Origin: Bacteroidales bacterium
GTDB taxonomy: Bacteria; Bacteroidota; Bacteroidia; Bacteroidales; UBA12077
Assembly: GCA_050179935.1 (NCBI GenBank)
Contig: JBFXEQ010000005.1
Span: forward strand, 39,738 to 103,737
Direction of reading: 5' to 3'
Length of the DNA: 64,000 bases
Shown here in pieces: positions 1 through 43,530 of the stretch. The notes under the pieces are model-generated. The model did no database searches, had not been told where the DNA came from, and saw nothing but the letters and a program-made list of their open reading frames with translations. Position 1 is the first letter of the stretch; the number at the start of each line of letters is the position of its first letter. The position numbers and the translations under genes are program-made.

Positions 1-371
1 ATCGTTCTGTAGCACAACAACACGGATTAAAATATATTTTGCTCCCGGATTCAGTTAATTTAAAACTTCCTGAACTCAATGAATTTTATCAAACTGCAAG
101 TGTTGAGATCATAGGTAGCAAACCTGGTGAAAAACTAATGCAAACTGGGCAGGCTATGGTTTATGGAATTACCATTTTAAAAAATGCACCAAATAAAGAA
201 CTGGCTGAAAAATTCTTAAAGTTTGTACTGGATGATAATGGTGGTAGAAAAATTCTGGAAAATAATGGTCAACCAGCATTAAAGCAAACAATTCCCGAAC
301 AACTGAATAAAATACCTAGTAATATCAAAATCCTTTTAAACAGATATTTTTTTTTGAAAAATGCTTTGTAA
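1..371 (+). CDS. Tungstate/molybdate ABC transporter periplasmic substrate-binding protein (WtpA/ModA-like), C-terminal fragment; 5' end lies outside the window
   Basis: The reading frame is open from the window edge (frame of nt 3). The listed TTG at 39 is internal. The tail 'GQAMVYGITILKNAPNKELAEKFLKFVLDDNGGRKILENNGQ' resembles the C-terminal lobe of WtpA-type solute-binding proteins. Matching permease and ATPase genes lie downstream. Confidence 0.65.
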   Translation, partial: RSVAQQHGLKYILLPDSVNLKLPELNEFYQTASVEIIGSKPGEKLMQTGQAMVYGITILKNAPNKELAEKFLKFVLDDNGGRKILENNGQPALKQTIPEQLNKIPSNIKILLNRYFFLKNAL

Positions 372-386
372 TTCCAACTAGCTTAT

Positions 387-394
387 TACTTTTG
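387..394 (+). promoter_or_regulatory. Candidate Bacteroidota sigma-A -7 box (TAnnTTTG)
   Basis: 'TACTTTTG' sits 60 nt upstream of the ATG at 454 and immediately upstream of the palindrome at 399-422. Confidence 0.4.
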
Positions 395-398
395 CATG

Positions 399-422
399 CG
401 ATATGTTATTTGTAACATAACG
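399..422. promoter_or_regulatory. Candidate ModE-type operator (24-nt inverted repeat CGATATGTTA-TTTG-TAACATAACG)
   Basis: 10-nt arms with one mismatch. The half-sites resemble the E. coli modA operator (CGTTATAT...ACATAACG). A related 24-nt site with the same left arm 'GCGATATGTT' occurs at 35636-35659, upstream of the ModE-like gene. Confidence 0.5.
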
Positions 423-453
423 TAATAAAACAAAACCAAAATCTAATAAAATT

Positions 454-1047
454 ATGAAAAAAACTATTTATTTATTATTATTTGCTTTTATAGCAACAAC
501 AACTTTTGTATCGTGCGAAGACGAGGAAGAAACCAAATCACCATTTATAACAGTAAAAATGGGTGCTCAGTCGAATACAACTATTGGAGCATTTTATTCA
601 ATCGAAATGAATAGTGTTTACAATCAAGCTGTTGCATTTACAAAGCAAGACACAATTGATTTTCTTTGTTTTTATGAGCATGATGAAATCAACGACAGAA
701 TTAACGATATGACCTTGGCATCACCGGGAGCAAATATAACCGATATTTTTGTTGATGATATTACTACATCTCCTGATGTTTGGACAACCAAAAACTTAAC
801 CAAATTTCAAGAACCTAATCCAGCAATGACAGTAGCTCAGTTCGATTTATTAAAAGAAACTGATGCTATTATTGAAACCAGTTTTGACAATACAGTTCTC
901 AGTGGAAATAAAAAAGCAAAATTACTTGCTGTTAATGATATTTATGCTTTCAAAACTCATAACAATCAATATGGTTTGTTAAAAGTAACTGAAGTACTAG
1001 AAGGAAATGATGGATATATAAAATTTGTTTACATCATTAAAAAGTAA
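454..1047 (+). CDS. Lipoprotein, uncharacterised family (paralog 1 of 3 in this window)
   Basis: Signal peptide plus lipobox 'TTFVSC'. Its C-terminal block 'KKAKLLAVNDIYAFKTHNNQYGLLKVTEVLEGNDGYIKFVYIIKK' is shared with the ORFs at 1163-2065 and 37331-38275. It also carries the mid-block 'ASPGANI'. Confidence 0.7.
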   Translation: MKKTIYLLLFAFIATTTFVSCEDEEETKSPFITVKMGAQSNTTIGAFYSIEMNSVYNQAVAFTKQDTIDFLCFYEHDEINDRINDMTLASPGANITDIFVDDITTSPDVWTTKNLTKFQEPNPAMTVAQFDLLKETDAIIETSFDNTVLSGNKKAKLLAVNDIYAFKTHNNQYGLLKVTEVLEGNDGYIKFVYIIKK

Positions 1048-1067
1048 TTCTGATTAATTATAAAAAA

Positions 1068-1110
1068 TCCTACGTGAGTCTTTGTTATTCCCGTAGGGTT
1101 TTCCTTTTTT
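1068..1110 (+). terminator. Possible intrinsic terminator or attenuator hairpin
   Basis: 'CCTACG' (1069-1074) pairs with 'CGTAGG' (1092-1097) and is followed by 'TTTTCCTTTTTT'. The loop is long, so support is weak. Confidence 0.4.
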
Positions 1111-1162
1111 CCAATTATCCAAAAATAATTTATTGATTTTTTGAAAAGCTAACTATCAAACC

Positions 1163-2065
1163 ATGAAAACTAGTTGTATAATTGTAGTTACAGCTCTACT
1201 ATTCCTATTTACTCAATGTACTGAGGACGAAAATGTAACTTCGACTCCCTTTATTTTGCTAAAAACTGGGCTTTCCTATACAAATAATGAAGCTTACATT
1301 CCAGTTGGAGGTCAATTAAATTTTGGCATTTCAGCAGTAGGGGATGGATTTGAGATCACAAATCTTACTGTTAAACGCACCACAAATGCAGGTTCAGTAA
1401 CAGAGCTTGATAAAGGAATGTTTATTAAACAAGGTGGATTGGATACCATTCTGACTTATTACAAAGGTTATGCAGATCAGGAAACATGGGTTTTTTCGAT
1501 CATGAATAGTAATCGCGATACGGCTTCTGTTTCAATCATTGTTTATAAAGGTTCCGGAAGTGCTTATGGTGATATTGATTTTTTCCCTTCTATCACAATT
1601 GGATACCAAAACAATTCCTCTCTTCCTAATTTTGTTGATGTAAACACAGGATTGGCTTATACAGGTTCAACGGTATCAGGCAATGAATCTCTCATTGATT
1701 TAGTTAGTTATTATTACTTAAGTTCTGGATCATCATCTCCTACAATTTCATGTCCATCGTATAATACAGCAAAATCATATTATCCGGTAATGAACGACTG
1801 GGTAGTTCAAAATTCAACGGTTTATGATTATTATACTACAGATAATAACTTAATTTCTACAACTCAGTTTGATGCTGCACAAAATGATAGCTTGCTTATT
1901 AATGGATATAAACCCGAAAGCGTAAGTGGAACTTGTAAATTTTGTTTTGCTGATAAAGTGATTCCATTTAAAACAGGACAAGGGAAATACGGATTAATTA
2001 AAGTGATTCATGCTGACGAAACTGATACCGGGCACATTGAAATTGCAGTAAAAATTCAGAAATAA
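1163..2065 (+). CDS. Lipoprotein, uncharacterised family (paralog 2 of 3)
   Basis: Lipobox 'LFTQC'. Its C-terminal block 'KVIPFKTGQGKYGLIKVIHADETDTGHIEIAVKIQK' aligns with the tails of ORFs 454-1047 and 37331-38275. It lies directly upstream of the TBDR. Confidence 0.7.
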   Translation: MKTSCIIVVTALLFLFTQCTEDENVTSTPFILLKTGLSYTNNEAYIPVGGQLNFGISAVGDGFEITNLTVKRTTNAGSVTELDKGMFIKQGGLDTILTYYKGYADQETWVFSIMNSNRDTASVSIIVYKGSGSAYGDIDFFPSITIGYQNNSSLPNFVDVNTGLAYTGSTVSGNESLIDLVSYYYLSSGSSSPTISCPSYNTAKSYYPVMNDWVVQNSTVYDYYTTDNNLISTTQFDAAQNDSLLINGYKPESVSGTCKFCFADKVIPFKTGQGKYGLIKVIHADETDTGHIEIAVKIQK

Positions 2066-2075
2066 CGAATTGAAG

Positions 2076-4397
2076 ATGAAAAAACTAGTTGTACTTATTA
2101 TATTATTTACCTTATTTTCAGGAATTGTTTTTGCCCAATCGTCGATTAAGGGAACTATTGTTGATGAAGATACTTTTACAGCAATCAGTTTTGCTAATAT
2201 CTCTATTAATAAAGGGAAAGGTACTGTAAGTGACGAAAATGGAAATTTCATACTGAAAAACCTAAAACCAGGCAATTATACACTACAAATTTCATTTGTA
2301 GGATATGAATCAGTATTTCAAAATATTAAGGTAAATGACAACGAGATTCTTGAGCTTCAGATTAAACTAAAACCTTCTAATTATACAGCCGAAGATGTTG
2401 TAATTACTGCCACAAAGACTGAAAATTATATTAAAGATATTCCAACCCGCATAAACCTCATTTCGCCAAGGCAGATTGAAGCATTACCGGCTCAAACAAC
2501 CGACGAGTTACTGGCATTTGTACCTGGTGTAAATATTAACCGATCGTTTGGTATTTACTCGCATTCAGCTGCTGTAACCATGCGCGGACTAAACGGACAG
2601 GAACAAGGTCGTGTGTTGGTTATGATTGATGGAATTTCTGTTAATAAGTCTGATGGCGGATCGGTAAACTGGAATTTGTTAAATAATGATCAGATTGATC
2701 GTATTGAGGTAGTTAAAGGCCCCGGATCTTCACTTTATGGAGGAAATGCCATGGGTGGAGCAATAAATATCATCACCAAAAAACCTACAGAAAATATTCA
2801 GGGCAAATTAAGTGTTGATTATGGTACTTATAACACTATGCGAAGTCAATTGTATTTATCAGGTCGTTTAAATCCAGCTATTGATAAAGGTTTTTACTGG
2901 AATCTTAGTAGCTTTTACCGACAAAGCGATGGATATATGACCGCCTCGGAGGCAGATCAACTGGCAAACAAGTATCTTGTTAAATCAGATCTGAAAGAAT
3001 GGGCTGCAACCGCTAAAGTTGGTTACGACTTTAATCAAAACAATGGGCTGGAACTAGACATGCTTTATTATGATGATGATAGAGCTACCGGCGAAAAAGT
3101 TTTTCAACCCGAAGGAAATAATCGAGAGCATGATACCTATCAGATTAGGGCAAAGTATAATGGTCAGAAAAACAAGTTGAACTGGACTATTAATCTATTC
3201 TATCTAAACGAAGATTATAAAAGGATAAGCGAATATTATAAAGACGATTATACATTTTACAAAGTACTATCTGAAAGGGTTGATTTGGGTGCATTATCTT
3301 CCTTATCGTACAATTTGAAAAACCAAATAATAACAGGTGGTGTTGATCTTAAGCAAGGCCGTGTTGATGCAAAAGATATTTATTATACCTCATCCGATAT
3401 AGTTTATAACCGCGGTAAAATGAATACGCTGGGATTATTTATTCAGGACGAAATAAAATTACTGAATAATAAACTAAAAGTTATTGCAGGATTAAGATTT
3501 GATTATGCCAACTTCTTTGATGGAGGATTTGAGATTGAGAATCCTACTGCGGAAACTACTTTTATGTTAGCTTATCATGATGACAATTTAAAAGAAGATA
3601 CATGGAATGCATTAAGTCCTAAATTGTCGGTACAGTATGAATTTACAAATGATTACCGCATTTACGCCAGCTTTTCCAAAGGATTTAGACCTGCTGTTTT
3701 AGATGATATGTGTCGCTCAGGAAGAATAAAAGGCGGATTTAAAGTTGCCGATCCAGGTTTGCAGCCGGAATACCTAAGTAATTTTGAAATTGGTGCTGAT
3801 GCCAAATTCTTTCAGCGATTAAGAACATCATTATCTGCTTTTTATTCTATGGGTGATGATTTTATGTATTATGTTAATACCGGCGATTCTATTGATCTTG
3901 GCTTCGGTTTGCGTCCTATAATTAAAGCCTCCAATATCTCCGAAGTTGAGATTTATGGACTCGAGTTTGAAGCAAATTATCTGCTTACCGATTATATTAT
4001 TTTTAATGCGAATTATGCCTATTCTCATTCACAAATAAAAGATTTTACACCTTTGAATGTAAGTGATCCGGTTGATTTAACAGGTAAATATTTATCTGAT
4101 GTGCCAAGCCACTCAGGTTCGTTTTCTGTAAACTGGCGTAATAAAATAGTTAATGCAGGTATTAATGCAAAATATACTGGAAGCAGATGGGTAAATGATT
4201 TAAACCAGATGGATGAAATTATTCTGGATGATAAATACCCATCATTTACAACGCTTGATTTGAAATTATCAAAATCATTTAAAATGATTTTTACAACGCT
4301 AAGTATCCAGAATATTCTTGATACCAAGTTTTACGATAGCAAAGGAGCAGTCTGCCCCGGCAGATTTATTACACTTGAATTAGGTCTAAAGTTTTAA
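2076..4397 (+). CDS. TonB-dependent outer-membrane receptor with an N-terminal CarboxypepD_reg-like domain
   Basis: Signal peptide, then 'GTIVDEDTFTAISFANISI...NLKPGNYTLQISFVGY' and a plug block 'RIEVVKGPGSSLYGGNAMGGAINIITKK'. It ends with a C-terminal aromatic, 'LELGLKF'. I prefer the ATG at 2076 over the TTG at 2070. Confidence 0.9.
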   Translation: MKKLVVLIILFTLFSGIVFAQSSIKGTIVDEDTFTAISFANISINKGKGTVSDENGNFILKNLKPGNYTLQISFVGYESVFQNIKVNDNEILELQIKLKPSNYTAEDVVITATKTENYIKDIPTRINLISPRQIEALPAQTTDELLAFVPGVNINRSFGIYSHSAAVTMRGLNGQEQGRVLVMIDGISVNKSDGGSVNWNLLNNDQIDRIEVVKGPGSSLYGGNAMGGAINIITKKPTENIQGKLSVDYGTYNTMRSQLYLSGRLNPAIDKGFYWNLSSFYRQSDGYMTASEADQLANKYLVKSDLKEWAATAKVGYDFNQNNGLELDMLYYDDDRATGEKVFQPEGNNREHDTYQIRAKYNGQKNKLNWTINLFYLNEDYKRISEYYKDDYTFYKVLSERVDLGALSSLSYNLKNQIITGGVDLKQGRVDAKDIYYTSSDIVYNRGKMNTLGLFIQDEIKLLNNKLKVIAGLRFDYANFFDGGFEIENPTAETTFMLAYHDDNLKEDTWNALSPKLSVQYEFTNDYRIYASFSKGFRPAVLDDMCRSGRIKGGFKVADPGLQPEYLSNFEIGADAKFFQRLRTSLSAFYSMGDDFMYYVNTGDSIDLGFGLRPIIKASNISEVEIYGLEFEANYLLTDYIIFNANYAYSHSQIKDFTPLNVSDPVDLTGKYLSDVPSHSGSFSVNWRNKIVNAGINAKYTGSRWVNDLNQMDEIILDDKYPSFTTLDLKLSKSFKMIFTTLSIQNILDTKFYDSKGAVCPGRFITLELGLKF

Positions 4398-4416
4398 TAA
4401 AATAATAAAAGCAATT

Positions 4417-5490
4417 ATGAAAAAACTATTTACAATTATTCTTGTAGGAATAAGCATTACAGCATGTAATGTAAAACAAACTGACAGTACAGCTGAGAAC
4501 AAATATCAGCGACAATTAACTGCCGACACAATTGATGCAACAAATGATTTTTATGATAACGCTGAAACTCATTTATTACCAGCACAACAACTTACCGTTG
4601 AAGGTGAAATAAGCAATCCAGGAATTGTAGATTTTACAAAGCTTCCATTGCGCAGTGTTATTGTTAAAGAAACACTTTTATCTGACAGTGGTGATAAATT
4701 TATTGGCGCTTATCGATATGATGGATATGCGCTTTACGACATTCTAAATCAGGTAAAACTGAATAAAAAAAACAAAGAAGAATTTAACCCGATTATTGAT
4801 TTATATGTTCAGATCGAGAATAACAAAGGCGAAAAAGCAACTATAAGCTGGGGCGAAATTTTTTACCCAAACCACTTACAGGAGATTATTATTGCCACTC
4901 AGGTTATGCGTATTGTGCCTTCAAAAACCAACGATCTTTGGCCTTTGCCCGAAGAAAGCAAGTTAGTTGTTTCGAGAGATCTGATAACTGAAAGAAATAT
5001 TTCATCACCAGTTAAAATAATTGTAAAATCATATCCAAAATCATTCGAAACAATTAAAGGATTAAAACCACTATTTTCCCCAACTATCGATATTTATAAC
5101 GAAAACGAGAAAATAGAAACTCTTACAGAAAATCCAAAAGAGTTGCAGATAGAAAAATTCAACACTATTTTTTATGGCCGTGGCAGAGGAATCCATTCTA
5201 CACAACCATTTACAGGTGTATTATTAAAAGATGTTTTGTTAAAAAATACTACATTTGATCAGAAAAATATCCGTGAAGGAATTTTCGTTGTTGTAGCAAA
5301 AGATGGATATAGAACTGTATTTACGTTTAGCGAAATAATGAATCGAAACGATCAAGCAGAGGTTCTTTTGGTTTGTCGCCCAGAAACAACAGATGATGGA
5401 ATTTTTAGATTATTTCCTGCATGCGATTTCTTTTCCGATAGAGCAGTAAAAGGAATAAACGCTATTTATTTTTCGGCTAACGAACAATAA
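4417..5490 (+). CDS. Lipoprotein with two tandem domains that resemble the molybdopterin-oxidoreductase (SUOX/YedY-type) fold
   Basis: Lipobox 'SITAC'. Segments such as 'FTGVLLKDVLLKNTTFD..REGIFVVVAKDGYRTVFTFSEIMNRNDQAEVLLVC' and 'YRYDGYALYDILNQVKL' recall the 'W.GV.L.dLL....v.f.a.DGY....' pattern of that fold. The fold assignment is tentative. Confidence 0.55.
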   Translation: MKKLFTIILVGISITACNVKQTDSTAENKYQRQLTADTIDATNDFYDNAETHLLPAQQLTVEGEISNPGIVDFTKLPLRSVIVKETLLSDSGDKFIGAYRYDGYALYDILNQVKLNKKNKEEFNPIIDLYVQIENNKGEKATISWGEIFYPNHLQEIIIATQVMRIVPSKTNDLWPLPEESKLVVSRDLITERNISSPVKIIVKSYPKSFETIKGLKPLFSPTIDIYNENEKIETLTENPKELQIEKFNTIFYGRGRGIHSTQPFTGVLLKDVLLKNTTFDQKNIREGIFVVVAKDGYRTVFTFSEIMNRNDQAEVLLVCRPETTDDGIFRLFPACDFFSDRAVKGINAIYFSANEQ

Positions 5491-5492
5491 AA

Positions 5493-6287
5493 ATGTATAA
5501 AAACAGGCTAAGTAGATTAGATATTATATTCTTAATTCTTGGTGGACTAATATTACTTTTTATTATTAGTCCACTACTTGGTATGTTTTTAGCCACAACA
5601 CCTGCACAATTTTTCGAAACATCAAAAGATCCCGAAGTACTTAATAGTATTTGGTTAACACTTTGGGTTTCGTTTGTCGCTACCATTATTTTTGCGTTTG
5701 GCGCAATTCCTCTATCCTACTTTCTAGCCCGAACCAATTTTCGGTTTAAAGGAATAGTAAATGGAATAGTTGATTTACCAGTGGTAATACCACATTCGGC
5801 TGCAGGTATTGCTATTTTGGGGTTTGTATCGCGCGATTCGGTGCTTGGTAAAATTGGTTCATCGATGGGGCTTAACTTTGTTGGTCATCCGGCTGGAATA
5901 GCAGTTGCCATGGCCTTTGTAAGTATTCCGTTTTTAATTAACGCTGCCCGCGATGGATTCGAAAATGTTCCGGAACGACTCGAAAAGACAGCTCTTAATT
6001 TGGGAGCGTCTCCTGTTCGTGTTTTTTTTACTATTTCGTTGCCTCTGGCCTGGAAAAATGTGTTATCGGGATTAATTATGATGTTCGCTCGTGGATTAAG
6101 CGAATTTGGTGCCGTAATAATCATTGCATATCATCCAATGATTACGCCTGTACTTATATTTGAACGTTTTGGTGCTTTTGGTTTAAAATATGCCCGACCC
6201 GTTTCGGTTGTATTTATTATCGTTTGCCTTGTGTTTTTTGTTCTGCTAAGAAGTCTTGCCAAAGAAAGGAAATCAAACGATGCTTAA
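5493..6287 (+). CDS. Tungstate/molybdate ABC transporter permease (WtpB/ModB family)
   Basis: Multi-TM protein with 'DLPVVIPHSAAGIAILGF', the EAA-type loop 'ERLEKTALNLGASPVRVFFTISLP' and the 'IIIAYHPMITPVLIFERF' block typical of WtpB-like permeases. Confidence 0.85.
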   Translation: MYKNRLSRLDIIFLILGGLILLFIISPLLGMFLATTPAQFFETSKDPEVLNSIWLTLWVSFVATIIFAFGAIPLSYFLARTNFRFKGIVNGIVDLPVVIPHSAAGIAILGFVSRDSVLGKIGSSMGLNFVGHPAGIAVAMAFVSIPFLINAARDGFENVPERLEKTALNLGASPVRVFFTISLPLAWKNVLSGLIMMFARGLSEFGAVIIIAYHPMITPVLIFERFGAFGLKYARPVSVVFIIVCLVFFVLLRSLAKERKSNDA

Positions 6288-7320
6288 ATTAAAAGATATT
6301 TCGATTAAACTGGGCGATTTTAAGCTAAAGAACATTGATCTTGAGTTGGAAAAAGAGGATTACTATGTTTTATTAGGCAAATCAGGAGTTGGAAAAACGG
6401 TTCTGCTCGAAATTATTGCCGGATTAATAAATCCAGAATCAGGGCAGGTATTTTTAAATGATATTGATATTACCCACGAAAAAATTCAGAAGAGAAAAGT
6501 AGGCATTGTATTTCAGGACTATTCTATTTTTCCGCATTTATCAGTAAAGCAAAACATAGCCTACCCGTTAAAAGGAAAAAACCTGAACATCCAGCAGGCT
6601 GAAAAGCTTATAAATGAATTTGCTGAGTTAACCAATATTTCTCATTTACTAAACCGATCAACCAAAAAATTATCAGGAGGCGAACTACAACGTGTAGCGT
6701 TGGCCCGAACATTAATTACCAAACCCGATTGTCTTTTATTGGATGAACCACTGGCATCGCTAGATATACAACTAAAAGGTGATTTACGAAATTTACTTCG
6801 CAAAATAAACCAGAACGGAACAACCATTTTGCATGTAACCCACGATTATGAAGAAGCAATTGCGTTGTCGAATAAAGTAGCCGTAATGCATGAAGGTGAG
6901 ATTATTCAAAAAGGATTAACAAAAGAAGTATTTCAAAAACCTACTAATGAATTTGTGGCCAATTTTACCGGAATAAAAAACTTTTTTTATGCTGAGTTTA
7001 CGCCAATTAATACGGCCAAAATAAACGACAACGTTGAAATCCATATAAGCAATCATGAGCAATTAAAAACTGGCAAAATAATAATTCGAGGCGAAGAAAT
7101 TATTGTTTCAGAAAACTGCTTACAGTCAAGTGCTACCAATAATTTTAAAGGTAAAATACTCCAGATTATCCCCTATTTTTCGAATTACGAATTAATTGTT
7201 GATATAGGGATTGAACTATCGGTGGTAATATCCGAAGAGTCTTTTTCGAAATTTAATTTTAAAAATCATTCAGAGGCATGGGTTTCATTTAAATCAACAG
7301 CTATAAAAATCATCCCTTAA
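6280..7320 (+). CDS. Tungstate/molybdate ABC transporter ATP-binding protein with a C-terminal TOBE-like domain (WtpC/ModC family)
   Basis: Walker A 'GKSGVGKT', signature 'LSGGELQRVALAR', Walker B 'LLLDEP', and a C-terminal OB/TOBE-like tail. I prefer the ATG at 6280, which overlaps the permease stop by 8 nt, over the TTG at 6256. Confidence 0.9.
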   Translation: MLKLKDISIKLGDFKLKNIDLELEKEDYYVLLGKSGVGKTVLLEIIAGLINPESGQVFLNDIDITHEKIQKRKVGIVFQDYSIFPHLSVKQNIAYPLKGKNLNIQQAEKLINEFAELTNISHLLNRSTKKLSGGELQRVALARTLITKPDCLLLDEPLASLDIQLKGDLRNLLRKINQNGTTILHVTHDYEEAIALSNKVAVMHEGEIIQKGLTKEVFQKPTNEFVANFTGIKNFFYAEFTPINTAKINDNVEIHISNHEQLKTGKIIIRGEEIIVSENCLQSSATNNFKGKILQIIPYFSNYELIVDIGIELSVVISEESFSKFNFKNHSEAWVSFKSTAIKIIP

Positions 7321-7382
7321 GTATTTTAGCAAACATTTTTAACCAATTTTTGTTTTATTCCATATAACTAAAGCATGCAATT

Positions 7383-7796
7383 ATGGAATTAACATCAATA
7401 AATTTTATAGCGGTGCTAGTTTCAGCTCTATCTGCGTTTGCAATTGGCTCTGTTTGGTACAGCCCGCTTATGTTCAGTAAAGCCTGGCAAAATGCGTTAG
7501 GCTTATCAGAAAAAGATATAAAAGAAGCTAATATGGTTTTAATTTTTGGAACCAGCTTTTTATTAATGTTCGTAATGGCAATTGGTTTATCGGTACTTTT
7601 AAACGCTTTAAATCCTAACGGAATTAACTGGTTAACAGGATTGAAACAAGGATTATTTATTGGTTTATTTTTTATTGCCACTTCGTATGGGGTAAACATT
7701 CTTTACCAGCGCAAATCGTTTAAATTATGGCTAATTGATTCTGGATATCAGGTTCTGTTACTCGGTATTATGGGTTTAATTATCGGTGCATGGTAA
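7383..7796 (+). CDS. DUF1761-family membrane protein
   Basis: 4-TM protein with an N-terminus 'INFIAVLVSALSAFAIGSVWYSPLMFSKAW' typical of DUF1761. Confidence 0.7.
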   Translation: MELTSINFIAVLVSALSAFAIGSVWYSPLMFSKAWQNALGLSEKDIKEANMVLIFGTSFLLMFVMAIGLSVLLNALNPNGINWLTGLKQGLFIGLFFIATSYGVNILYQRKSFKLWLIDSGYQVLLLGIMGLIIGAW

Positions 7797-7910
7797 TATT
7801 AAATTGCTGTTTTCTTTTTTAAATCTTTACATTTGTTAATTGTATTTCATTTATTTGCAAAGATTTTTTTGAATGAGGTTGGGACTTATAATTATTTGTT
7901 TATTTGATTA

Positions 7911-9086
7911 ATGATAAGATCATTCGCTTATAGGAGCATCATGTTTTTTGCAGGTATTTTATTTTTCATACTTGCCACATCCTTTACATTTTATAATCAT
8001 CCTAACGAAAATCATGATTTTAAAAGCGAAGAGACTCATCGCCCTGCATTTTTTCGTAATAAAATAATTACCGATGGGCCTTATGTTTTTTACGAAAATA
8101 ACGAGATTGTTGTACGATGGATTAAGGGAAAGCAACTAATAACTAAGAATCTATCAGGCGAAAACACAAAATACCTTCGTAAAAAATTTGGATTAAACAT
8201 TCCCATTGAAAACATTAAAAATCCCAATTCTAAACCCATTAATTATATTCAACAATACACAAACGTTGATAATGTAGTAATTATAAGTGATCCGCATGGC
8301 CAATTTGATTTGTTTACCAGTCTGCTAAAAGATCATCAGGTATTAAACGCAAATCTTGATTGGATTTTTGAAACCGGGCATTTAGTAATTTTAGGTGATG
8401 TATTCGATCGTGGATCAAAAGTAACCGAGCTATTATGGTTGATTTATCAATTAGAACAACAAGCTGAAAAAGCGGGCGGAAAAGTTCATTATATACTTGG
8501 TAATCACGAATTAATGGTTTTGAATAATGATTTACGGTATATTAATGAAAAATATATCCATTCGAGCCAAAAAATGAATATGGTTTATACCCAGCTTTTT
8601 GATGTAAACACCTTTTTTGGACAGTGGTTGCGATCAAAACCTGTAATGGTAAGTATTAACGACATGCTCTTTGTGCATGCCGGAATATCACCCGAGTTTT
8701 TATCAGCAGAACTTACTATTGAAAAAACAAATCAGATTTTTCACCAAAAAATAATTGGCAGGTCTTGGGATGTTATTTTAAATGATTCGATTAGCACCTT
8801 TTTGCTTAGCGAAAATGGTCCTTTATGGTATCGTGGTTATTTTAAAGAAATTATACCGGATAAAGAAATTGATAAAATTCTGAACTTTTTTAATTCAAAC
8901 CATTTAATTATTGGACATACCTCAATGCCCAATATTATGGCACTAAAAAGCGGAAAGATAATTATTGTCGACTCAGGGATTAAAGACGGAATTTATGGCG
9001 AAATCCTAATTTATAAAAAGAATGATTTATTCAGAGGCACTTCAAATGGAATGATTCTAAAACTAGAACCTCAGACTGGTTACTAA
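7911..9086 (+). CDS. Calcineurin-like metallophosphoesterase with an N-terminal membrane anchor
   Basis: Motifs 'ISDPHG', 'GDVFDRG' and 'GNHE'. Confidence 0.85.
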   Translation: MIRSFAYRSIMFFAGILFFILATSFTFYNHPNENHDFKSEETHRPAFFRNKIITDGPYVFYENNEIVVRWIKGKQLITKNLSGENTKYLRKKFGLNIPIENIKNPNSKPINYIQQYTNVDNVVIISDPHGQFDLFTSLLKDHQVLNANLDWIFETGHLVILGDVFDRGSKVTELLWLIYQLEQQAEKAGGKVHYILGNHELMVLNNDLRYINEKYIHSSQKMNMVYTQLFDVNTFFGQWLRSKPVMVSINDMLFVHAGISPEFLSAELTIEKTNQIFHQKIIGRSWDVILNDSISTFLLSENGPLWYRGYFKEIIPDKEIDKILNFFNSNHLIIGHTSMPNIMALKSGKIIIVDSGIKDGIYGEILIYKKNDLFRGTSNGMILKLEPQTGY

Positions 9087-9088
9087 GT

Positions 9089-10156
9089 TTAAAAACAGGT
9101 ACTTTTAACATTTCGCTTGATAAAATTGGGCGATTTAATTTCTTTATAAAACTCTTTAATATAATAAGTTACCCATTTTTTTGATTTCTTATCTAATAAA
9201 TCAAACGAATTGATATACTTAAAAATCTCTTGCTCTTTATTTAGAAAATGATTAATAACCTGATTGTAAAGTGAATCGCTCCGGCAAACTCCATTATAAT
9301 ATCGTTCGGTAACTTTTGTAATTGGAAGAGCTTTAGTAGGTGCAGAGTAATGAGCATCAACCATTCCTGCATAATCAAAATCGTAGGGCACAGGAATTAA
9401 TAAAGGATAATGATGATCTTTAAGCTTAAGTAGTTTTAAATTATGTCTTCCGGCCAGTGAAAAGTCTGTATTACCGATCATATACTGAAAAAACACCATG
9501 ATGGTCGAATGTAGTGAATCTAAATGCGAATGACTTAGATTGTCCTGCTTAATTGGTAATGCATCTACTCTTTCGGCAAGCATGTCTTCTGGCTCAATTA
9601 AAATAGCCCATTCGGAATCGGTTTTGTTTTTTCTGCCTATATCAACATAAGTTATTCGGGCTAATCGTGTTTTAAAACTATAATCGGTTATAATATTAAA
9701 TAATTTATAAGCCAAATACTCTTTTAATAGTATAGATGTATATTCTTTTGTACTTATGCAATGCGTAACTACTTTGATTTTATCTATATCGGAAGGCAGA
9801 TCATCGGTAACATCTGACTTTTTAAAATTAAGTGTGTATGGGGGAAAATAGCAGATATCTTTTCGTGTATTCCCTCTGGGTTTTATTTTAACATTTTTAA
9901 TAATCTCAACCGAATCGTTTAAAGCAAATGCAATGGTGGCTGGCATATAATTATCTGAATCTTTATTTGATTCAAGCTTTTTAATATCAAAAGTAAGCTT
10001 AAAGATCAGAGGATTATTCGTATCAAAAAAATCTGCCTGAAAATGAATATCCTCACCCTCGGCAGAACTGGTATCTTTATCCTGGGCAATTAAATACTTT
10101 TCGGGTAAAAGAAATATATAGCTATATGTCAAAAAAAACAATAGAAACCGAAACAT
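9089..10156 (-). CDS. Secreted CotH-like (atypical kinase fold) protein
   Basis: Signal peptide. 'IKPRGNTRKD..PPYTLNFKK' resembles the CotH 'RGNSS...KKSYRLKF' block. It also carries 'NTDFSLAGRHN' and 'PYDFDYAG'. The gene order VTC / DUF4956 / CotH recurs in Bacteroidota. Confidence 0.55.
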   Translation of the reverse strand: MFRFLLFFLTYSYIFLLPEKYLIAQDKDTSSAEGEDIHFQADFFDTNNPLIFKLTFDIKKLESNKDSDNYMPATIAFALNDSVEIIKNVKIKPRGNTRKDICYFPPYTLNFKKSDVTDDLPSDIDKIKVVTHCISTKEYTSILLKEYLAYKLFNIITDYSFKTRLARITYVDIGRKNKTDSEWAILIEPEDMLAERVDALPIKQDNLSHSHLDSLHSTIMVFFQYMIGNTDFSLAGRHNLKLLKLKDHHYPLLIPVPYDFDYAGMVDAHYSAPTKALPITKVTERYYNGVCRSDSLYNQVINHFLNKEQEIFKYINSFDLLDKKSKKWVTYYIKEFYKEIKSPNFIKRNVKSTCF

Positions 10157-10180
10157 CCTATTTTAAATTTTAATTGGGCA

Positions 10181-10849
10181 TTACCTTGGAGCATCGTAAA
10201 AACGTATTCCTTTAGCTTCTTTAAAGAAAACCAGTATTTCAATACTATCACGGATTAAATCAGCCGGACCCATATAAACCTTTACAACCTCAACACCTAG
10301 TCTTTCGGAAAGATCTTTTTTCATTTCTTCGTAGTTTTCAGGCTTTGCCAAATCAAGCCTATCGTAAATGACTTTTTTGCGTTTTACGCTCATTCCTGTA
10401 ATATACGATTCGACTACAAATGCCACAAGGATTGTTAAAACATCAGCAGCAGCCAGCTCAATAAAACTAATATTCTCGTTTGACACTGCATTTTTAATCG
10501 AAATTCCTATTACGAGGAAAAGGTAAGTCATCTCACGCGGTGGTATCGGGTTTGTTCTGTACCTAAGGATGCCAAAAATAGCAAATAATCCTAGGGCAAA
10601 TCCTAACCGCAAACTAACTGATCCAAGTAATAAACAAATCTGAAAAACCATCATACTTACAATCATGTAAGTAAAGAAATACTCGCGGTAACCTCCTTTT
10701 CTGAAATATAAATAATAAGAAGGAATAAAAACCCAGAACAAATTATACCCAAACCTTGCAACCAGGTTTATAAAGCCTTCGGAGTTAAAAAAATCTAATC
10801 CAAAAACCTTAATGGGTTCAATAAAGTCGCTTATCATACTTAGTACCAT
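10181..10849 (-). CDS. DUF4956-family membrane protein
   Basis: Multi-TM N-terminal half plus a soluble C-terminal domain. It lies immediately downstream of the VTC gene and overlaps it. Confidence 0.7.
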   Translation of the reverse strand: MVLSMISDFIEPIKVFGLDFFNSEGFINLVARFGYNLFWVFIPSYYLYFRKGGYREYFFTYMIVSMMVFQICLLLGSVSLRLGFALGLFAIFGILRYRTNPIPPREMTYLFLVIGISIKNAVSNENISFIELAAADVLTILVAFVVESYITGMSVKRKKVIYDRLDLAKPENYEEMKKDLSERLGVEVVKVYMGPADLIRDSIEILVFFKEAKGIRFYDAPR

Positions 10850-11594
10850 AACATATTTGATTAATGGTTGTTATTTTTTTTATAAACCGATTGTGTTTAA
10901 TTGATGGATTAAGAACTATACTACCAAGAATATACTTGCTAAAACCATATGGTTTAATTTTTAAATCATGCAATACTTTTGACAGTGGGCTGGCAACCTG
11001 CGCTTTTTCTTTCTTGGTTTCAATAATAACAAGATCGGGAAGAATAATAGTTTGGTCATTCTTTTTAAACTGAATCTGAGTATCAATAGTTATTCTTTCG
11101 AAATGATTTTTCCCGGCCATGGTTATCCGGTTAAAATTTGTCCAGATTGTTGGTTGCAAACCCGATTCGGGAACATCGATGTATTTATTTAAAAAATCAA
11201 GATGTAATTTGTTTAGGCTCGTATCAAAACTAAATTCTTTTCTTTTTTTATCGGTTCGGGTATAGTTTTTTTTCTTTTTAATTTCGAGAAAAACATCGCC
11301 TGTATTCACATATTTGCGAAACCGAATTTTATACCTGATTCTTTTCCCCTGATGATGATCAAAATAAGTTTTTAAATCGGGAGTATCGAAATATAACGAT
11401 TCGTATGTGAATTGGCGTTCTTTACCAGAAGCCTGAATCCTGAAATGATCAGTAATGGCAGACAATATTTGTGGCAGTTGCGATTTATGACAGATATATT
11501 TTGTATCTATTCTGTTTAGCAGTTTGTATTCAATTAACTCGTCTAAGCTAATTGGTTCGAAATGTTGAAGCAAATCGTAAGCAATATCACTCAT
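10818..11594 (-). CDS. VTC-domain (polyphosphate-polymerase-like, triphosphate tunnel) protein
   Basis: 'RIDTKYI', 'YESLYFDTPDL' and 'RYKIRFRKY...FLEIKKK' are characteristic of CYTH/VTC tunnel strands. Confidence 0.75.
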   Translation of the reverse strand: MSDIAYDLLQHFEPISLDELIEYKLLNRIDTKYICHKSQLPQILSAITDHFRIQASGKERQFTYESLYFDTPDLKTYFDHHQGKRIRYKIRFRKYVNTGDVFLEIKKKKNYTRTDKKRKEFSFDTSLNKLHLDFLNKYIDVPESGLQPTIWTNFNRITMAGKNHFERITIDTQIQFKKNDQTIILPDLVIIETKKEKAQVASPLSKVLHDLKIKPYGFSKYILGSIVLNPSIKHNRFIKKITTINQICYGTKYDKRLY

Positions 11595-11738
11595 AAGCTT
11601 TGTTTCAAATTACCATCCCTCACATCCACAATGCATAAAAGTAATCAAATCCCATTAAATTAAAATATATTAAAAAGAAATATATTTACTAAACGATGAA
11701 TTTTTACTTATTTTACTAAAAATTAACATCTAATTATT

Positions 11739-12593
11739 ATGAAAACATTTATTATTCAGCTTATTTTAATATTCAGCCTGTTTCAAGGATTATCTCAGAA
11801 TAAAAACGCATATCAGATTTATACTACTAATGGCGAATTGGTTACGTACGAAAAAATGCTAAGTGAATTGAAAAATGCTGATATTATTTTATTTGGAGAA
11901 CTGCATAATAATCCTGTTTCGCACTGGTTACAGTACGAAACAACATTGGATCTATCGCAATCTGAACAACTTATTATGGGAGCCGAAATGTTCGAAGCCG
12001 ATAATCAGGACGAGCTCAATAAGTATTTAAAAGGAGAGATTGATCAAAAAGCATTAGATACCCTTGCCCGGCTTTGGCCAAACTACAAAACAGACTATGC
12101 CCCATTGGTAAATCTGGCCAAAGACAAACAGATAAGTTTTATTGCTACAAATATTCCTCGCCAATATGCCAATATGGTTTTTAAAAAAGGTTTCGAATCA
12201 CTTGAATCGCTCACAGATGAAGAAAAAAGCTGGATGGCACCTTTGCCAATTGAATACGATGCTGAATTACCAGGTTATAAAAACATGCAATCAATGATGG
12301 GTGGACACGGAGGTGAAAACCTACCAAAAGCACAAGCTATAAAAGATGCTACCATGGCCTATTTTATAAGTACCAGTTATTTGCCAGGTAACAAATTTAT
12401 GCATTACCATGGAACTTACCATACCGATAATTACGAGGGAATACTCTGGTATTTGAAAAAGCTGAAACCTGAATTAAAATATATTACCATTTCTACTGTA
12501 GTTCAGCCTGATGTTAATACATTACAGGACGAAAATAAGGGAAAAGCCGATTTTATTATTTGTGTTGATGAAAACATGACATCAACCTACTAA
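11739..12593 (+). CDS. ChaN-family (haem-binding uptake, DUF399-like) lipoprotein or secreted protein
   Basis: Signal peptide and the 'ADIILFGELHNNPVSHW' motif typical of ChaN/Cofac_haem_bdg proteins. Confidence 0.65.
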   Translation: MKTFIIQLILIFSLFQGLSQNKNAYQIYTTNGELVTYEKMLSELKNADIILFGELHNNPVSHWLQYETTLDLSQSEQLIMGAEMFEADNQDELNKYLKGEIDQKALDTLARLWPNYKTDYAPLVNLAKDKQISFIATNIPRQYANMVFKKGFESLESLTDEEKSWMAPLPIEYDAELPGYKNMQSMMGGHGGENLPKAQAIKDATMAYFISTSYLPGNKFMHYHGTYHTDNYEGILWYLKKLKPELKYITISTVVQPDVNTLQDENKGKADFIICVDENMTSTY

Positions 12594-34987: not shown

Positions 34988-35151
34988 TTTTATAATCCAA
35001 AAACCTTTGAGCTGGTGTTTTGAATTAAATTTTGGAAAATACGTTATGCAAATATAAACATATCGCTTTAATATAAAACAAGATTTTTATCATGTTATAG
35101 CAAAAATTTAAATCACTATTTTTGTACATTAATAACAAAAAAGGATAAGCT

Positions 35152-35433
35152 ATGTTTAAAACAAACGAATATTTCGATGGAAAAGTAAAATCAATAGCTT
35201 TCGAAACAAACGAAGGTCCAGCAACAGTTGGTGTTATGGCAAAGGGTGAGTATGTATTTGGAACATCAACAGTAGAATTTATGACTGTAACATCAGGTAA
35301 TATGACCATTCAGCAACCAGGAGAAACAGAATGGAAATCATACAAAGAGTTTGAAACATTTAAAGTTGCTAAAGATGTTAAATTCAAAGTTAAAGTAGAT
35401 AGCGATACTTCTTATCGTTGTCTTTACAAATAG
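35152..35433 (+). CDS. ppnP: Pyrimidine/purine nucleoside phosphorylase PpnP (YaiE, DUF1255)
   Basis: 'NEYFDGKVKSIAFE...ATVGVMAKGEYVFGT...SYRCLY' is collinear with E. coli PpnP. Confidence 0.9.
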   Translation: MFKTNEYFDGKVKSIAFETNEGPATVGVMAKGEYVFGTSTVEFMTVTSGNMTIQQPGETEWKSYKEFETFKVAKDVKFKVKVDSDTSYRCLYK

Positions 35434-35456
35434 TTGAATTTTTTGATCTTTGATAA

Positions 35457-35542
35457 TTGATTTTTTCATTTGCCCCTTCCCTAAAGGGTGTGAAAAAATC
35501 AATTTGCTCCCTTCAGGGTATGAGGCAAACAAATTGATTTTT
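35457..35542. repeat. Twin-hairpin intergenic repeat, copy A (~86 bp)
   Basis: It contains 'CCCTAAAGGG' and 'CCCTTCAGGG' hairpins 30 nt apart inside flanking stems ('GATTTTTTCA'/'TGAAAAAATC'). Its reverse complement aligns almost base-for-base with 53574-53663. It has the same orientation as 58170-58260. Confidence 0.85.
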
Positions 35543-35595
35543 AAATAAATAGAAATTTATTAAAATTTTAAAATAATCAAATTTTTAAATTAATG

Positions 35596-35620
35596 CTATG
35601 AAGTTTTTTTAACTTCATGG
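35596..35620 (+). terminator. Hairpin plus T-run (ppnP terminator or attenuator upstream of the ModE-like gene)
   Basis: 'CTATGAAGTT-ttttt-AACTTCATGG' followed by 'TATTTTTTTA'. Confidence 0.5.
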
Positions 35621-35635
35621 TATTTTTTTACTTTG

Positions 35636-35659
35636 CGATATGTTTTTTATATCATATTG
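35636..35659. promoter_or_regulatory. Candidate ModE-type operator, second copy
   Basis: 'CGATATGTTTTTTATATCATATTG'. The left arm and the preceding 'TTACTTTGC' match the site at 399-422, and the right arm is 'CATATTG'. It ends 17 nt upstream of the ATG of the ModE-like gene. Confidence 0.45.
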
Positions 35660-35675
35660 ATTAATAAAAATTCTT

Positions 35676-36053
35676 ATGGCAGGCTCAAAAGGTTCAAAAT
35701 ATTATGATATTTTTTTGAAATTCAAAGTATGGCTTGAAAATACAAAAGGACAGGGTATTTTAGGCGATGGTAAATTTGAATTACTCGAAATGATCGATAA
35801 ACATGGGTCATTAAGTGCTGCAGCTGATAAAATGGGAATAAGTTATCGCAAAGCTTGGGGTAATGTGAAGGAGGCCGAAGAAAAACTAGGATTTATACTG
35901 GTTGAGAAACATCGTGGAGGAGCGCAAGGTGGAAATTCAGTTTTAACACCCGAAGGTAAAAGACTAATTGAAGCTTACAAAGAGCTTTTAGTTGAATTTG
36001 ATGAATCCATTCATCAAATAACTAAAAAATTCTTCAATAAAATTAATTCGTAG
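35676..36053 (+). CDS. ModE N-terminal-domain-like winged-helix regulator (125 aa, no Mop/TOBE molybdate-binding domains)
   Basis: 'GSLSAAADKMGISYRKAWGNVKEAEEKLGFILVEKHRGGAQGGNSVLTPEGKRLIEAY' matches the ModE/LysR-type HTH_1 N-domain pattern. Confidence 0.8.
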   Translation: MAGSKGSKYYDIFLKFKVWLENTKGQGILGDGKFELLEMIDKHGSLSAAADKMGISYRKAWGNVKEAEEKLGFILVEKHRGGAQGGNSVLTPEGKRLIEAYKELLVEFDESIHQITKKFFNKINS

Positions 36054-36056
36054 ATT

Positions 36057-37317: not shown

Positions 37318-37330
37318 AAAATCGCTTTTT

Positions 37331-38275: not shown

Positions 38276-38280
38276 GTTGC

Positions 38281-40569: not shown

Positions 40570-40632
40570 TTGTTCTTTTACAAAAAAATGGTGCAATTTT
40601 GCAATATAATTGGTTGGATTATAACTTAACAA

Positions 40633-41430: not shown

Positions 41431-41478
41431 TAACTGATATAAAACCAAAGAATAACTATTTTTGTAAAAATTTTGTAG

Positions 41479-43435: not shown

Positions 43436-43440
43436 AAGAA

Positions 43441-43525: not shown

Positions 43526-43530
43526 TTCTT

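Follow-up and report, generated by a model that had tools for sequence, protein, structure and literature searches.

Why should an operon for the import of tungstate and molybdate contain the gene for a TonB-dependent outer membrane receptor? Both oxyanions are small enough for porins, so an energized step across the outer membrane needs a rationale, such as extreme scarcity of the metal or its presence in a bulky or complexed form. The question is raised by a window of 64,000 nt of Bacteroidales DNA, the whole stretch that we analyzed here, in which the original prediction had placed a receptor and three lipoproteins inside such an operon and had read them as a route for TonB-dependent acquisition of molybdenum or tungsten (Mo/W). 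The layout was confirmed in our analysis. All seven genes lie on the plus strand where they had been placed, in the order wtpA, Lp1, Lp2, receptor (here TBDR1), Lp3, wtpB, and wtpC, with gaps of 10 nt (Lp2/TBDR1), 19 nt (TBDR1/Lp3), and 2 nt (Lp3/wtpB), and an 8-nt overlap between wtpB and wtpC if the latter begins at the ATG at 6280.

The genes at either end of this arrangement are of Mo/W type rather than sulfate or iron type, as had been proposed. The 3' part of wtpA occupies positions 1 to 371 (open reading frame, 3 to 371); its 5' part was taken from locus L001, on the same contig in the public assembly, where the full gene spans L001:4966-5955. The full-length WtpA, a solute-binding lipoprotein of 329 amino acids (aa), scores 400.9 bits against the NCBIfam WtpA equivalog (cut-off, 355) and aligns with crystal structures of archaeal WtpA/ModA (3CFZ, 2ONK, and 3CG1) at E values of 1e-78 to 2e-68. 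For the ABC permease (5493 to 6287), the best NCBIfam match is the WtpB model, at 278 bits and under its cut-off of 340. The ATPase (6256 to 7320) likewise best matches the WtpC model, with an end-to-end alignment and 345 bits, under the cut-off of 440; its TOBE-like C-terminal tail is weak in Pfam (19.2 bits versus a cut-off of 22.3). The ATG at 6280 is its likely start, and the TTG at 6256 is the other option.

Between these genes lie TBDR1 and three lipoproteins; Lp1, Lp2, Lp3, and WtpA all carry a lipoprotein signal peptide with a lipobox cysteine. TBDR1 (2076 to 4397; 773 aa, with an alternative start possible at a TTG at 2070) has the Pfam domains CarboxypepD_reg, Plug, and TonB_dep_Rec_b-barrel, and a TonB-box-like EDVVITA is visible in its translation. 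Lp2 (1163 to 2065; 300 aa), which has 369 homologs, was modeled by AF2 (pLDDT 90) as an Ig-like N-terminal domain followed by a DUF4466-like C-terminal domain, and the top Foldseek match of the model is 4EI0 (DUF4466; E value, 2.5e-10). For Lp1 (454 to 1047; 197 aa), neither Pfam nor NCBIfam gave a family; the protein is equivalent to the C-terminal domain of Lp2-type proteins, and its identity with the C-terminal half of the Lp2 paralog described below is 33%. The Lp1 lipobox leads into CEDEEE, and acidic residues after the lipobox cysteine are conserved in Lp2. Both are predicted to be surface exposed, as such an acidic stretch is typical of Bacteroidota surface lipoproteins.

Lp3 (4417 to 5490; 357 aa) is a different kind of protein. 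It has no Pfam match itself, its distant relatives match PF00174, and with 2095 homologs and 521 species genomes it is a new family. Its AF2 model (pLDDT 84) consists of two sulfite-oxidase-like domains, and the top Foldseek match is YedY (1XDY; E value, 1.6e-4). The fold of YedY/MsrP, a member of the sulfite-oxidase family, is thus predicted twice within Lp3. Unlike YedY/MsrP, Lp3 lacks a conserved cysteine to act as Mo ligand: its homologs share none beyond the lipobox, and its signal peptide is of the lipoprotein type, not the Tat type. We therefore predict a binding or hand-over protein rather than a molybdoenzyme and consider a cofactor-containing enzyme unlikely. The acidic surface-export signal is absent from Lp3, which is predicted to face the periplasm, and one of its relatives occurs as a fusion with an SBP_bac_11 solute-binding protein. 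No metal-binding motif was detectable and verifiable in Lp1, Lp2, or Lp3.

The association of these genes extends well beyond the window. In other species, 42 loci found with Lp3 as the seed had flanks long enough for comparison. Of these, 30 have wtp genes, 25 have a receptor gene immediately 5' of Lp3, and 21 have both, which bears out the expectation of conserved synteny with Mo/W genes; 8 of the 42 had neither nearby. An arrangement that recurs in so many species is no chance juxtaposition. In the remaining 9 loci with wtp genes, no receptor lies directly upstream of Lp3, and several of these are plain wtpA-Lp3-wtpB-wtpC operons with receptor-free flanks. Lp3 thus keeps its place beside wtpABC where the receptor is missing. 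The three lipoproteins predicted to accompany the receptor are all present, and their grouping can now be refined: Lp1 and Lp2 form the receptor cassette, and Lp3 is the partner of the ABC transporter. Other Mo/W genes recur at these loci, with moeA-moaA-moaC directly 3' of wtpC in L031, L070, and L078 and the order Lp3, TupA-like, TupB-like, ATPase, MoeA, MoaA in L075. Four sister loci encode an AlgE-family outer membrane barrel within the wtp operon, which suggests that the outer membrane step is dedicated there too. In each of the six distinct contexts sampled at receptor identities of 49 to 57%, the Lp1-Lp2-TBDR cassette lies apart from wtp genes, and four of the six lack Lp3 as well. The Mo/W link of these distant cassettes consists only of the operator described below, plus a ModE-like neighbor in one case, and a T9SS-secreted protein is added in distant cassette loci.

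A second, paralogous cassette resides in the window itself, at 35.6 to 44 kb on the plus strand, in the order ModE-like regulator, two unknown genes, lipoprotein, receptor, unknown gene, and moeA-moaA-moaC. The lipoprotein (37331 to 38275; 314 aa) is 27% identical to Lp2 (E value, 2e-25), and the receptor, TBDR2 (38281 to 40569; 762 aa), is 41% identical to TBDR1 over its full length and has the same domain set. The moeA (41479 to 42651), moaA (42635 to 43435), and moaC (43531 to 43992) genes serve molybdenum/tungsten cofactor synthesis; MoaA and MoaC exceed their cut-offs (291.9 versus 284 and 187.5 versus 141.5), and the moeA product is best matched by MoeA-type models at 292 to 306 bits, under their cut-offs. 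The two conserved genes after the regulator (36057 to 37317) encode a 246-aa soluble protein (36057 to 36797) and a 192-aa membrane protein (36739 to 37317); the pair accompanies second-type cassettes in 9 loci and has only weak family matches. No ABC transporter is encoded within this second cassette.

Both cassettes appear to be linked to molybdenum-type regulation by a 24-bp palindrome, CGnTATG-N10-CATAnCG, which has the frame of the Escherichia coli ModE box (consensus ATCGNTATATA-N6-TATATANCGAT; PMC545781). The 1.25 Mb of loci contain 40 copies, compared with about 1.5 expected and 0 to 2 in shuffled sequence, and the window has three where 0.05 would be expected. Nearly all sites lie 30 to 76 nt upstream of wtpA, Lp1, Lp2, or Lp3; Lp1 is preceded by one in 15 of 17 loci, and in the loci scanned the palindrome never stands upstream of the TBDR, wtpB, or wtpC. 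It also precedes cassettes distant from wtp (L082, L084, L086, L088, and L089). In the window, the ModE-box-like operator CGATATGTTATTTGTAACATAACG (399 to 422; no strand assigned, as for the other two) matches 12 of 12 specified positions, and Lp1 starts 31 nt further on. Just before it on the plus strand, TACTTTTG (387 to 394) could be an internal promoter driving the cassette; as read from the sequence, it fits the Bacteroides-type -7 element, which Bayley et al. reportedly gave in 2000 as TAnnTTTG. The whole operon is apparently under one molybdenum-type repressor site.

The second operator (35042 to 35065; 12 of 12 positions) is followed, after about 87 nt, by a ppnP-like gene (35152 to 35433, plus strand; 93 aa; Pfam Ppnp, E value 1.4e-32), which may belong to the same regulon and whose gene neighborhood is found again in L030. 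The third (35636 to 35659; 11 of 12 positions) stands 17 nt before the gene for the ModE-like regulator (35676 to 36053, plus strand; 125 aa), which is predicted to control its own gene through this site. The regulator matches Pfam HTH_1 and TIGR00637 (ModE_repress; 81.7 bits, E value 3e-23, under the cut-off of 98.5); it comprises the N-terminal DNA-binding domain only, the Mop domains being absent, and homologs adjoin the system in 9 other distinct loci. Mo/W-responsive control of the cassette is predicted from the operator.

Taken together, synteny, the shared operator, and the second cassette support the original reading, and we think it probable that the system serves Mo/W acquisition, a TonB-dependent outer membrane module having been added to a WtpABC importer. 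Under Mo/W scarcity, the ModE-like repressor would leave its operators before wtpA, before Lp1, and before its own operon. Lp1 and Lp2 may then capture a Mo/W species outside the cell, which could be free tungstate or molybdate, a thio- or poly-oxo form, or a chelate. TBDR1, as its family membership suggests, would move this species into the periplasm by means of the proton-motive force delivered via TonB; that its cargo is Mo/W we infer from association, predicted regulation, and predicted structure. Lp3 would take the cargo and pass the oxyanion to WtpA, from which WtpB/WtpC would import it at the expense of ATP; WtpA is a clear family member, and WtpB and WtpC are best matches only. The imported metal would feed MoeA, MoaA, and MoaC, encoded beside the second receptor cassette. 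These uncultured Bacteroidales may thus actively pump Mo/W through the outer membrane rather than relying on diffusion. We found no earlier description of such a TonB-dependent Mo/W system in the literature, in keeping with the earlier statement that none had been characterized in Bacteroidota.

The most conventional alternative is that TBDR1 is an ordinary iron, heme, or corrinoid receptor whose operon position has no functional meaning. Source databases do call its relatives "iron complex outer membrane receptor," its best NCBIfam receptor models are the TonB-hemin, siderophore, and B12 subfamilies, and its best solved relative is the heme receptor PhuR (E value, 1e-28). Yet all of these NCBIfam scores fall far below their cut-offs, and the matches, including that to PhuR, run mainly over the generic plug; TBDR1 is not close to any characterized receptor. 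With synteny with wtp, Lp3, moeA, and moaA repeated in many species, the same ModE-type operator before wtpA and the cassettes, and both paralogous cassettes of the window in Mo/W gene clusters, we regard this explanation as highly improbable.

Two further readings keep the cassette within the Mo/W regulon and differ as to cargo. An organic molecule, such as a pterin or a cofactor fragment or precursor for salvage, might be imported, with Lp3 as its periplasmic binder: the Lp3 fold is that which binds molybdopterin cofactor in sulfite-oxidase-family enzymes, the second cassette has its conserved 192-aa membrane protein and no ABC transporter, and the nucleoside-related ppnP-like gene bears the same operator. 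We judge this distinctly unlikely, as Lp3 is tied most tightly to the oxyanion importer WtpABC and is in one case fused to a binding protein, and the genes for de novo pterin synthesis (moaA and moaC) and metal insertion (moeA) in the same clusters suggest that the cell requires metal rather than cofactor. As a variant of Mo/W acquisition itself, the cargo may be a chelator complex (a "molybdophore" or "tungstophore") or a thiometalate, which Lp3 would release or convert before WtpA. The extra periplasmic protein between receptor and binding protein suits such a release step, and TonB-dependent receptors typically import complexes whose size or scarcity makes porins inadequate (PMC11658791). 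Where a source is indicated, the metagenome-assembled genomes appear to come from settings such as digesters, an anaerobic membrane bioreactor, a fen, and biofilm, which are likely anoxic and in which thiometalates would be plausible. No chelator biosynthesis genes were seen adjoining the loci, however, and Lp3 also accompanies wtpABC at loci with no receptor gene in the vicinity; we hold this variant to be possible and rather unlikely.

Seen in this light, the system resembles several known ones in part. As in BtuB-BtuG (vitamin B12), SusC-SusD (glycans), and HmuR-HmuY (heme), the receptor gene adjoins genes for surface-type lipoproteins; together with the T9SS-secreted protein of distant loci, this points to capture outside the cell followed by transfer to the barrel. 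No homology to SusD, BtuG, or HmuY was found for the cassette, and unlike those systems, Lp2 is modeled as DUF4466-like and the genomic and regulatory context is Mo/W rather than B12, glycan, or heme. Pseudomonas aeruginosa, according to work cited in PMC11734730, employs a T6SS-secreted ModA and the outer membrane protein IcmP in molybdate acquisition. That system, too, would have a dedicated outer membrane protein for molybdate; as far as that account goes, it differs in using a secreted ModA and a non-TonB outer membrane protein, with no homology to the cassette. The ModE regulons of E. coli, other Proteobacteria, and green sulfur bacteria have the same 24-bp frame (CGnTAT...ATAnCG) before transporter genes and a regulator with the same type of N-terminal DNA-binding domain. 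In contrast to E. coli ModE, the regulator here lacks the molybdate-binding Mop domains, and its half-site reads TATG, not TATATA. The predicted regulon also takes in TonB-dependent receptor cassettes, unlike known ModE regulons; we found no description of such cassettes in a ModE regulon in the literature. Finally, WtpA aligns with the solved archaeal proteins of the WtpABC type (Pyrococcus furiosus WtpA; Archaeoglobus fulgidus ModA/WtpA-ModBC, PDB 2ONK), and the permease and the ATPase with its TOBE-like tail best match WtpB and WtpC. Unlike its archaeal counterparts, this WtpA belongs to a diderm bacterium and is a lipoprotein, and unlike the described Wtp, Mod, and Tup systems, its operon is interrupted by an outer membrane receptor cassette and Lp3.

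An ORF listing of window positions 1-12000 places seven co-directional genes, from wtpA to wtpC, at the start of the window: the 3' end of wtpA (3-371), the lipoprotein genes Lp1 (454-1047) and Lp2 (1163-2065), the gene for a TonB-dependent receptor, TBDR (2076-4397), a third lipoprotein gene, Lp3 (4417-5490), the permease gene wtpB (5493-6287), and the ATPase gene wtpC, which starts at 6256 or 6280 and ends at 7320. From Lp2 onward, the listing gave the same spacings as the original prediction, namely gaps of 10, 19, and 2 nt before a final overlap of 8 nt. That prediction had also taken the flanking ABC genes to be of the molybdenum/tungsten (Mo/W) type, and this assignment held. The complete WtpA sequence, taken from the same contig in the public assembly (L001), scores above the NCBIfam WtpA equivalog cut-off (400.9 bits versus 355) and aligns with solved archaeal WtpA/ModA structures (PDB 3CFZ, 2ONK, and 3CG1; E values of 1e-78 to 2e-68). 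The best NCBIfam models for the permease and the ATPase are WtpB (278 bits, below the cut-off of 340) and WtpC (345 bits, below the cut-off of 440), which score well above the ModB/CysT and ModC models, respectively. These matches therefore mark the ABC genes as Mo/W-type. The Pfam domains are SBP in WtpA, BPD_transp_1 in the permease, and ABC_tran with a weak TOBE match in the ATPase.

The receptor has the hallmarks of a TonB-dependent transporter, with a CarboxypepD_reg domain, a plug domain (E = 2.4e-25), a 22-strand TonB barrel domain (E = 4.5e-48), and a TonB-box-like stretch, EDVVITA, upstream of the plug. By NCBIfam cut-offs, it lies outside the characterised substrate classes (haem, siderophore, B12, and SusC-type). 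Its best models, for haem, siderophores, and B12, fall far under their cut-offs (TonB-hemin, 235 versus 317; BtuB, 149 versus 600), and no SusC/RagA model is among the 25 best NCBIfam matches. The nearest PDB chain is PhuR (E = 1e-28), with an alignment mainly over the plug. The receptor is thus not close to any characterised one; clustering with such receptors, in the absence of conserved Mo/W synteny, would have counted against a role in Mo/W acquisition.

The synteny comparison covered 80 loci with Lp3, drawn from different species; counts refer to the 42 with at least 4 kb upstream and at least 3.5 kb downstream. The wtp genes are within reach of Lp3 in 30 of the 42, and a receptor gene is directly upstream of Lp3 in 25. 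Both are present in 21, such that the receptor's synteny with Mo/W genes, on which the original prediction depended, is conserved in relatives. Nine loci have wtp and no receptor directly upstream of Lp3, several of them being plain wtpA-Lp3-wtpB-wtpC operons with receptor-free flanks; four have only the receptor, and eight have neither. Gene order differs among loci (for example, the Lp1-Lp2-TBDR cassette followed by Lp3-wtpABC, or wtpCBA divergent from the cassette), which argues for selection on proximity rather than shared descent of a single arrangement. The genes moeA-moaA-moaC directly follow wtpC in L031, L070, and L078, and in L075, an Elusimicrobia-labelled MAG, Lp3 is followed by TupA-like, TupB-like, ATPase, MoeA, and MoaA genes.

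A sample taken from the receptor side comprised six relatives at 49-57% identity. The Lp1-Lp2-TBDR trio is intact in all six and is followed by Lp3 in two; in the other four, neither Lp3 nor wtp is nearby, and one of these four cassettes adjoins a ModE-like gene. In none of the six is the cassette linked to wtp. As the trio occurs intact without Lp3 or wtp, and Lp3 with wtp occurs without the receptor, there are two modules, often joined yet separable: Lp1-Lp2-TBDR, and Lp3 with wtpABC. In four loci from Rikenellaceae-labelled MAGs (L072, L077, L079, and L080), Lp3 is on its own: a gene for a Gate-domain membrane protein flanks it on one side and a GntP-like permease/glycerate-kinase-like gene on the other, and neither wtp nor a receptor is found within 10 kb. 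The upstream neighbours are the same in L090, but a full Lp1-Lp2-TBDR-Lp3 cassette is kept there, which suggests that the cassette was lost in the Rikenellaceae-labelled loci.

Four loci carry extra DNA between Lp3 or wtpA and wtpB. This is not an IS element but a gene for an AlgE-family (PF13372) outer-membrane beta-barrel, located within the wtp operon immediately before wtpB (L002:4855-6096, L005:5518-6759, L007:4726-5967, and L029:12177-13415). No receptor is near this gene in L005 and L007. The barrel may serve as a passive outer-membrane channel specific to Mo/W, and its presence inside wtp operons therefore makes a dedicated outer-membrane step a recurring theme for the Wtp importer.

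In aligned wtpA upstream regions, we recognised by eye a 24-bp ModE-box-like palindrome, CGnTATG-N10-CATAnCG, here called the operator. A scan requiring at least 11 of 12 positions identified 46 sites in 1.35 Mb of loci, nearly all of them 30-76 nt ahead of wtpA, Lp1, Lp2, or Lp3 starts. After duplicate removal, 40 sites remained, versus 0-2 in shuffles and about 1.5 expected; the window itself has 3, versus 0.05 expected. Lp1 has the operator ahead of it in 15 of 17 loci and wtpA in 8 of 39 (a further 8 match at 10 of 12 positions), and in the loci scanned the operator is never found ahead of TBDR, wtpB, or wtpC. It is also present ahead of cassettes away from wtp (L082, L084, L086, L088, and L089). 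Its frame is the same as that of the E. coli ModE consensus, ATCGNTATATA-N6-TATATANCGAT (PMC545781).

One of the window's sites (399-422) resides between wtpA and Lp1. Just before it, at 387-394, TACTTTTG fits the Bacteroides -7 promoter consensus; such elements were identified by eye. With this element next to the operator, the cassette seems to have a regulated promoter of its own. Scans for sigma-70 promoters and terminators gave counts not above shuffles, a null result to be expected in Bacteroidota. Control by a riboswitch or another RNA was rejected: Rfam models matched neither window 1-12000 nor the region ahead of wtpA in L001 above noise level, and no Moco riboswitch was detected. Between Lp1 and Lp2, the 115-nt gap harbours a CCTACG...CGTAGG inverted repeat and then a run rich in T (1069-1097), which may be a partial terminator that raises Lp1 abundance over the downstream genes; the terminator scan made no call there. 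Downstream of wtpC are DUF1761 and metallophosphoesterase genes (7383-9086), as in L002, L003, and L016; L004 and L012 have the metallophosphoesterase alone. Neither an operator nor a functional link was found for the genes at 7383-9086.

The two further operator sites in the window (35042-35065 and 35636-35659) pointed to a second cluster at 35042-43992. It begins with a ppnP-like gene with an upstream operator (35152-35433) and a regulator gene (35676-36053), followed by genes for a 246-aa uncharacterised protein (36057-36797), a multi-pass 192-aa membrane protein (36739-37317), an Lp2 paralog (37331-38275; 27% identity to Lp2), a second receptor, TBDR2 (38281-40569; 41% identity to the first, TBDR1), and a 265-aa uncharacterised protein (40633-41430), and ends with moeA, moaA, and moaC (41479-43992). 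This second cassette has no ABC transporter of its own. The 125-aa regulator consists of the ModE N-terminal domain alone (TIGR00637, E = 3e-23; 81.7 versus a cut-off of 98.5); no Mop or TOBE domain was matched in it by Pfam, leaving no recognisable metal sensor. ModE-like regulators are beside the system in 9 further distinct loci, and in 9 other loci the 246-aa/192-aa pair likewise occurs alongside a cassette of the second type. This pair could partner the Mop-less regulator as its sensor or serve the second cassette as an inner-membrane carrier; the 246-aa protein has weak similarity to methanogenesis marker 11 and to the TiaS TCKD domain. The operator of the PpnP-family (pyrimidine/purine nucleoside phosphorylase-like) gene is perfect and about 87 nt upstream, and this gene neighbourhood is kept in L030.

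These data bear on whether TBDR might be an iron or haem receptor that is adjacent to wtp by coincidence. In view of synteny and the common operator, we rejected this reading. Moreover, with two paralogous receptor cassettes amid Mo/W genes in one 64-kb window, coincidental placing of both is very unlikely.

No Pfam family was found for Lp1, Lp2, or Lp3, nor any NCBIfam family for Lp1 and Lp2. The AlphaFold model of Lp2 (pLDDT 90) matches 4EI0 (E = 2.5e-10), a structural-genomics protein of the DUF4466 family from Parabacteroides; a literature search found no paper on DUF4466. Sequence comparison indicates that Lp1 is the counterpart of the C-terminal domain in Lp2-type proteins. Two or three acidic residues directly follow the lipobox Cys in Lp1 and Lp2, and mostly none do so in Lp3 homologs. 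Acidic residues after this Cys were reportedly tied to surface exposure in work on Bacteroidota lipoprotein sorting by Lauber and colleagues in 2016. By this pattern, Lp1 and Lp2 are predicted to be exposed at the surface and Lp3 to face the periplasm. In distant loci (L020:4542-5423, L078:6731-7600, L038:6180-7586, L050:6705-7562, and others), the gene between Lp2 and the receptor encodes a secreted protein, about 290 aa long (468 aa in L038), that ends in a C-terminal T9SS sorting domain, and Lp1 is undetected in most of these loci. Such a protein is consistent with extracellular capture.

Lp3 has about 2,100 homologs, all unnamed and without Pfam domains, and among the species genomes scanned, 521 encode it, most of these being Bacteroidales MAGs. 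The sole significant PDB match to its AlphaFold model (pLDDT 84, pTM 0.82) is E. coli YedY/MsrP (1XDY; E = 1.6e-4), which has the sulfite-oxidase cofactor-binding fold. Searching PDB sequences with a profile built from the Lp3 alignment gave no matches, so this lead comes from fold comparison; distant Lp3 relatives, though not Lp3 itself, match PF00174. A periplasmic molybdoenzyme would be one reading of this fold. However, the lipobox Cys is the only invariant Cys across 32 Lp3 homologs, and the signal peptide is of the lipoprotein type with no twin-arginine. Lp3 therefore lacks both a conserved Mo-ligand Cys and Tat export, from which we infer that it is probably not a cofactor-bearing enzyme. 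In one 623-aa relative, Lp3 is fused with a binding protein of the SBP_bac_11 type. At the edge of the family, P0215, P0222, and P0253 (about 590 aa) have two Oxidored_molyb-like domains and a tetrapyrrole methylase (TP_methylase) domain. The motif DTxDATNDFYDNAET (Lp3 residues 37-51; window 4525-4569) is nearly invariant in Lp3 homologs, falls in a low-confidence, seemingly unstructured N-terminal tail of the model, and may serve as a peptide that docks a partner, for instance WtpA or the receptor.

Taken together, the gene content, homology, predicted folds, synteny, and operator best support a putative Mo/W transport route, in which the ligand, the preference for W or Mo, how regulation is directed, and the protein-protein contacts are likewise putative. 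Mo/W-responsive de-repression would switch on the cassette and wtp genes; Lp1 and Lp2 would capture a metal species at the cell surface; the receptor would pass it inward, driven by TonB; Lp3 would pass the cargo to WtpA; and import by WtpBC would feed cofactor synthesis. Against this route count the regulator's want of a recognisable metal sensor, the receptor cassettes at 49-57% identity that are away from wtp, and the Lp3 genes in surroundings unconnected with Mo/W. We think it moderately likely that environmental Bacteroidales and some neighbouring lineages have such a dedicated TonB-energised W/Mo pathway, made up of surface lipoproteins with a DUF4466-like fold, a novel clade of receptors, and a novel family of cofactor-less sulfite-oxidase-fold periplasmic lipoproteins feeding WtpA, all under a Mop-less ModE-type repressor.

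Molybdate and tungstate are generally assumed to enter the periplasm by diffusion, and key enzymes of anaerobic metabolism, among them formate dehydrogenases and aldehyde oxidoreductases, need W/Mo. If passage across the outer membrane were regulated and energised, the view of how anaerobes compete for trace W/Mo would change. As the original prediction had held for Bacteroidota, no such system appears to have been characterised: in our literature search, no paper described a TonB-dependent receptor in connection with Wtp, Tup, Mod, or a ModE regulon, and a 2024 review of TonB-dependent transporter substrates names neither metal (PMC11658791). If the pathway is real, the substrates of TonB-dependent transport would gain Mo/W as a new class, and Lp3 would represent a novel type of periplasmic protein that hands over metal oxyanions. 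A function would also be assigned to three sizeable protein families now labelled "hypothetical", that of Lp3 alone with its roughly 2,100 homologs in 521 species genomes. The model can be tested directly, as it predicts that the operator is bound, that scarcity of Mo/W induces the system, that Lp1, Lp2, and Lp3 bind metal, and that mutants are impaired in uptake.

A receptor and surface lipoproteins that feed an ABC importer are a well-known architecture; what appears new is the class of substrate, the family of Lp3, and the composition of the regulon. Sulfite-oxidase-family molybdoenzymes have a conserved Mo-ligand Cys and are exported by Tat once folded and loaded with cofactor, whereas Lp3 has neither feature. 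The general layout is like that of SusCD and BtuBG-type pairs, in which a receptor gene adjoins surface-type lipoprotein genes. The adjacent lipoprotein in those pairs is SusD or BtuG, however, and Lp1 and Lp2 have no homology to either by Pfam or NCBIfam, the Lp2 model matching DUF4466 (4EI0) rather than SusD or a BtuG propeller. While ModE of known regulons joins its DNA-binding domain to two Mop molybdate-binding domains and the regulator here is without Mop, the putative ModE-type palindromic operator is located ahead of transporter genes, as in the ModE regulon.
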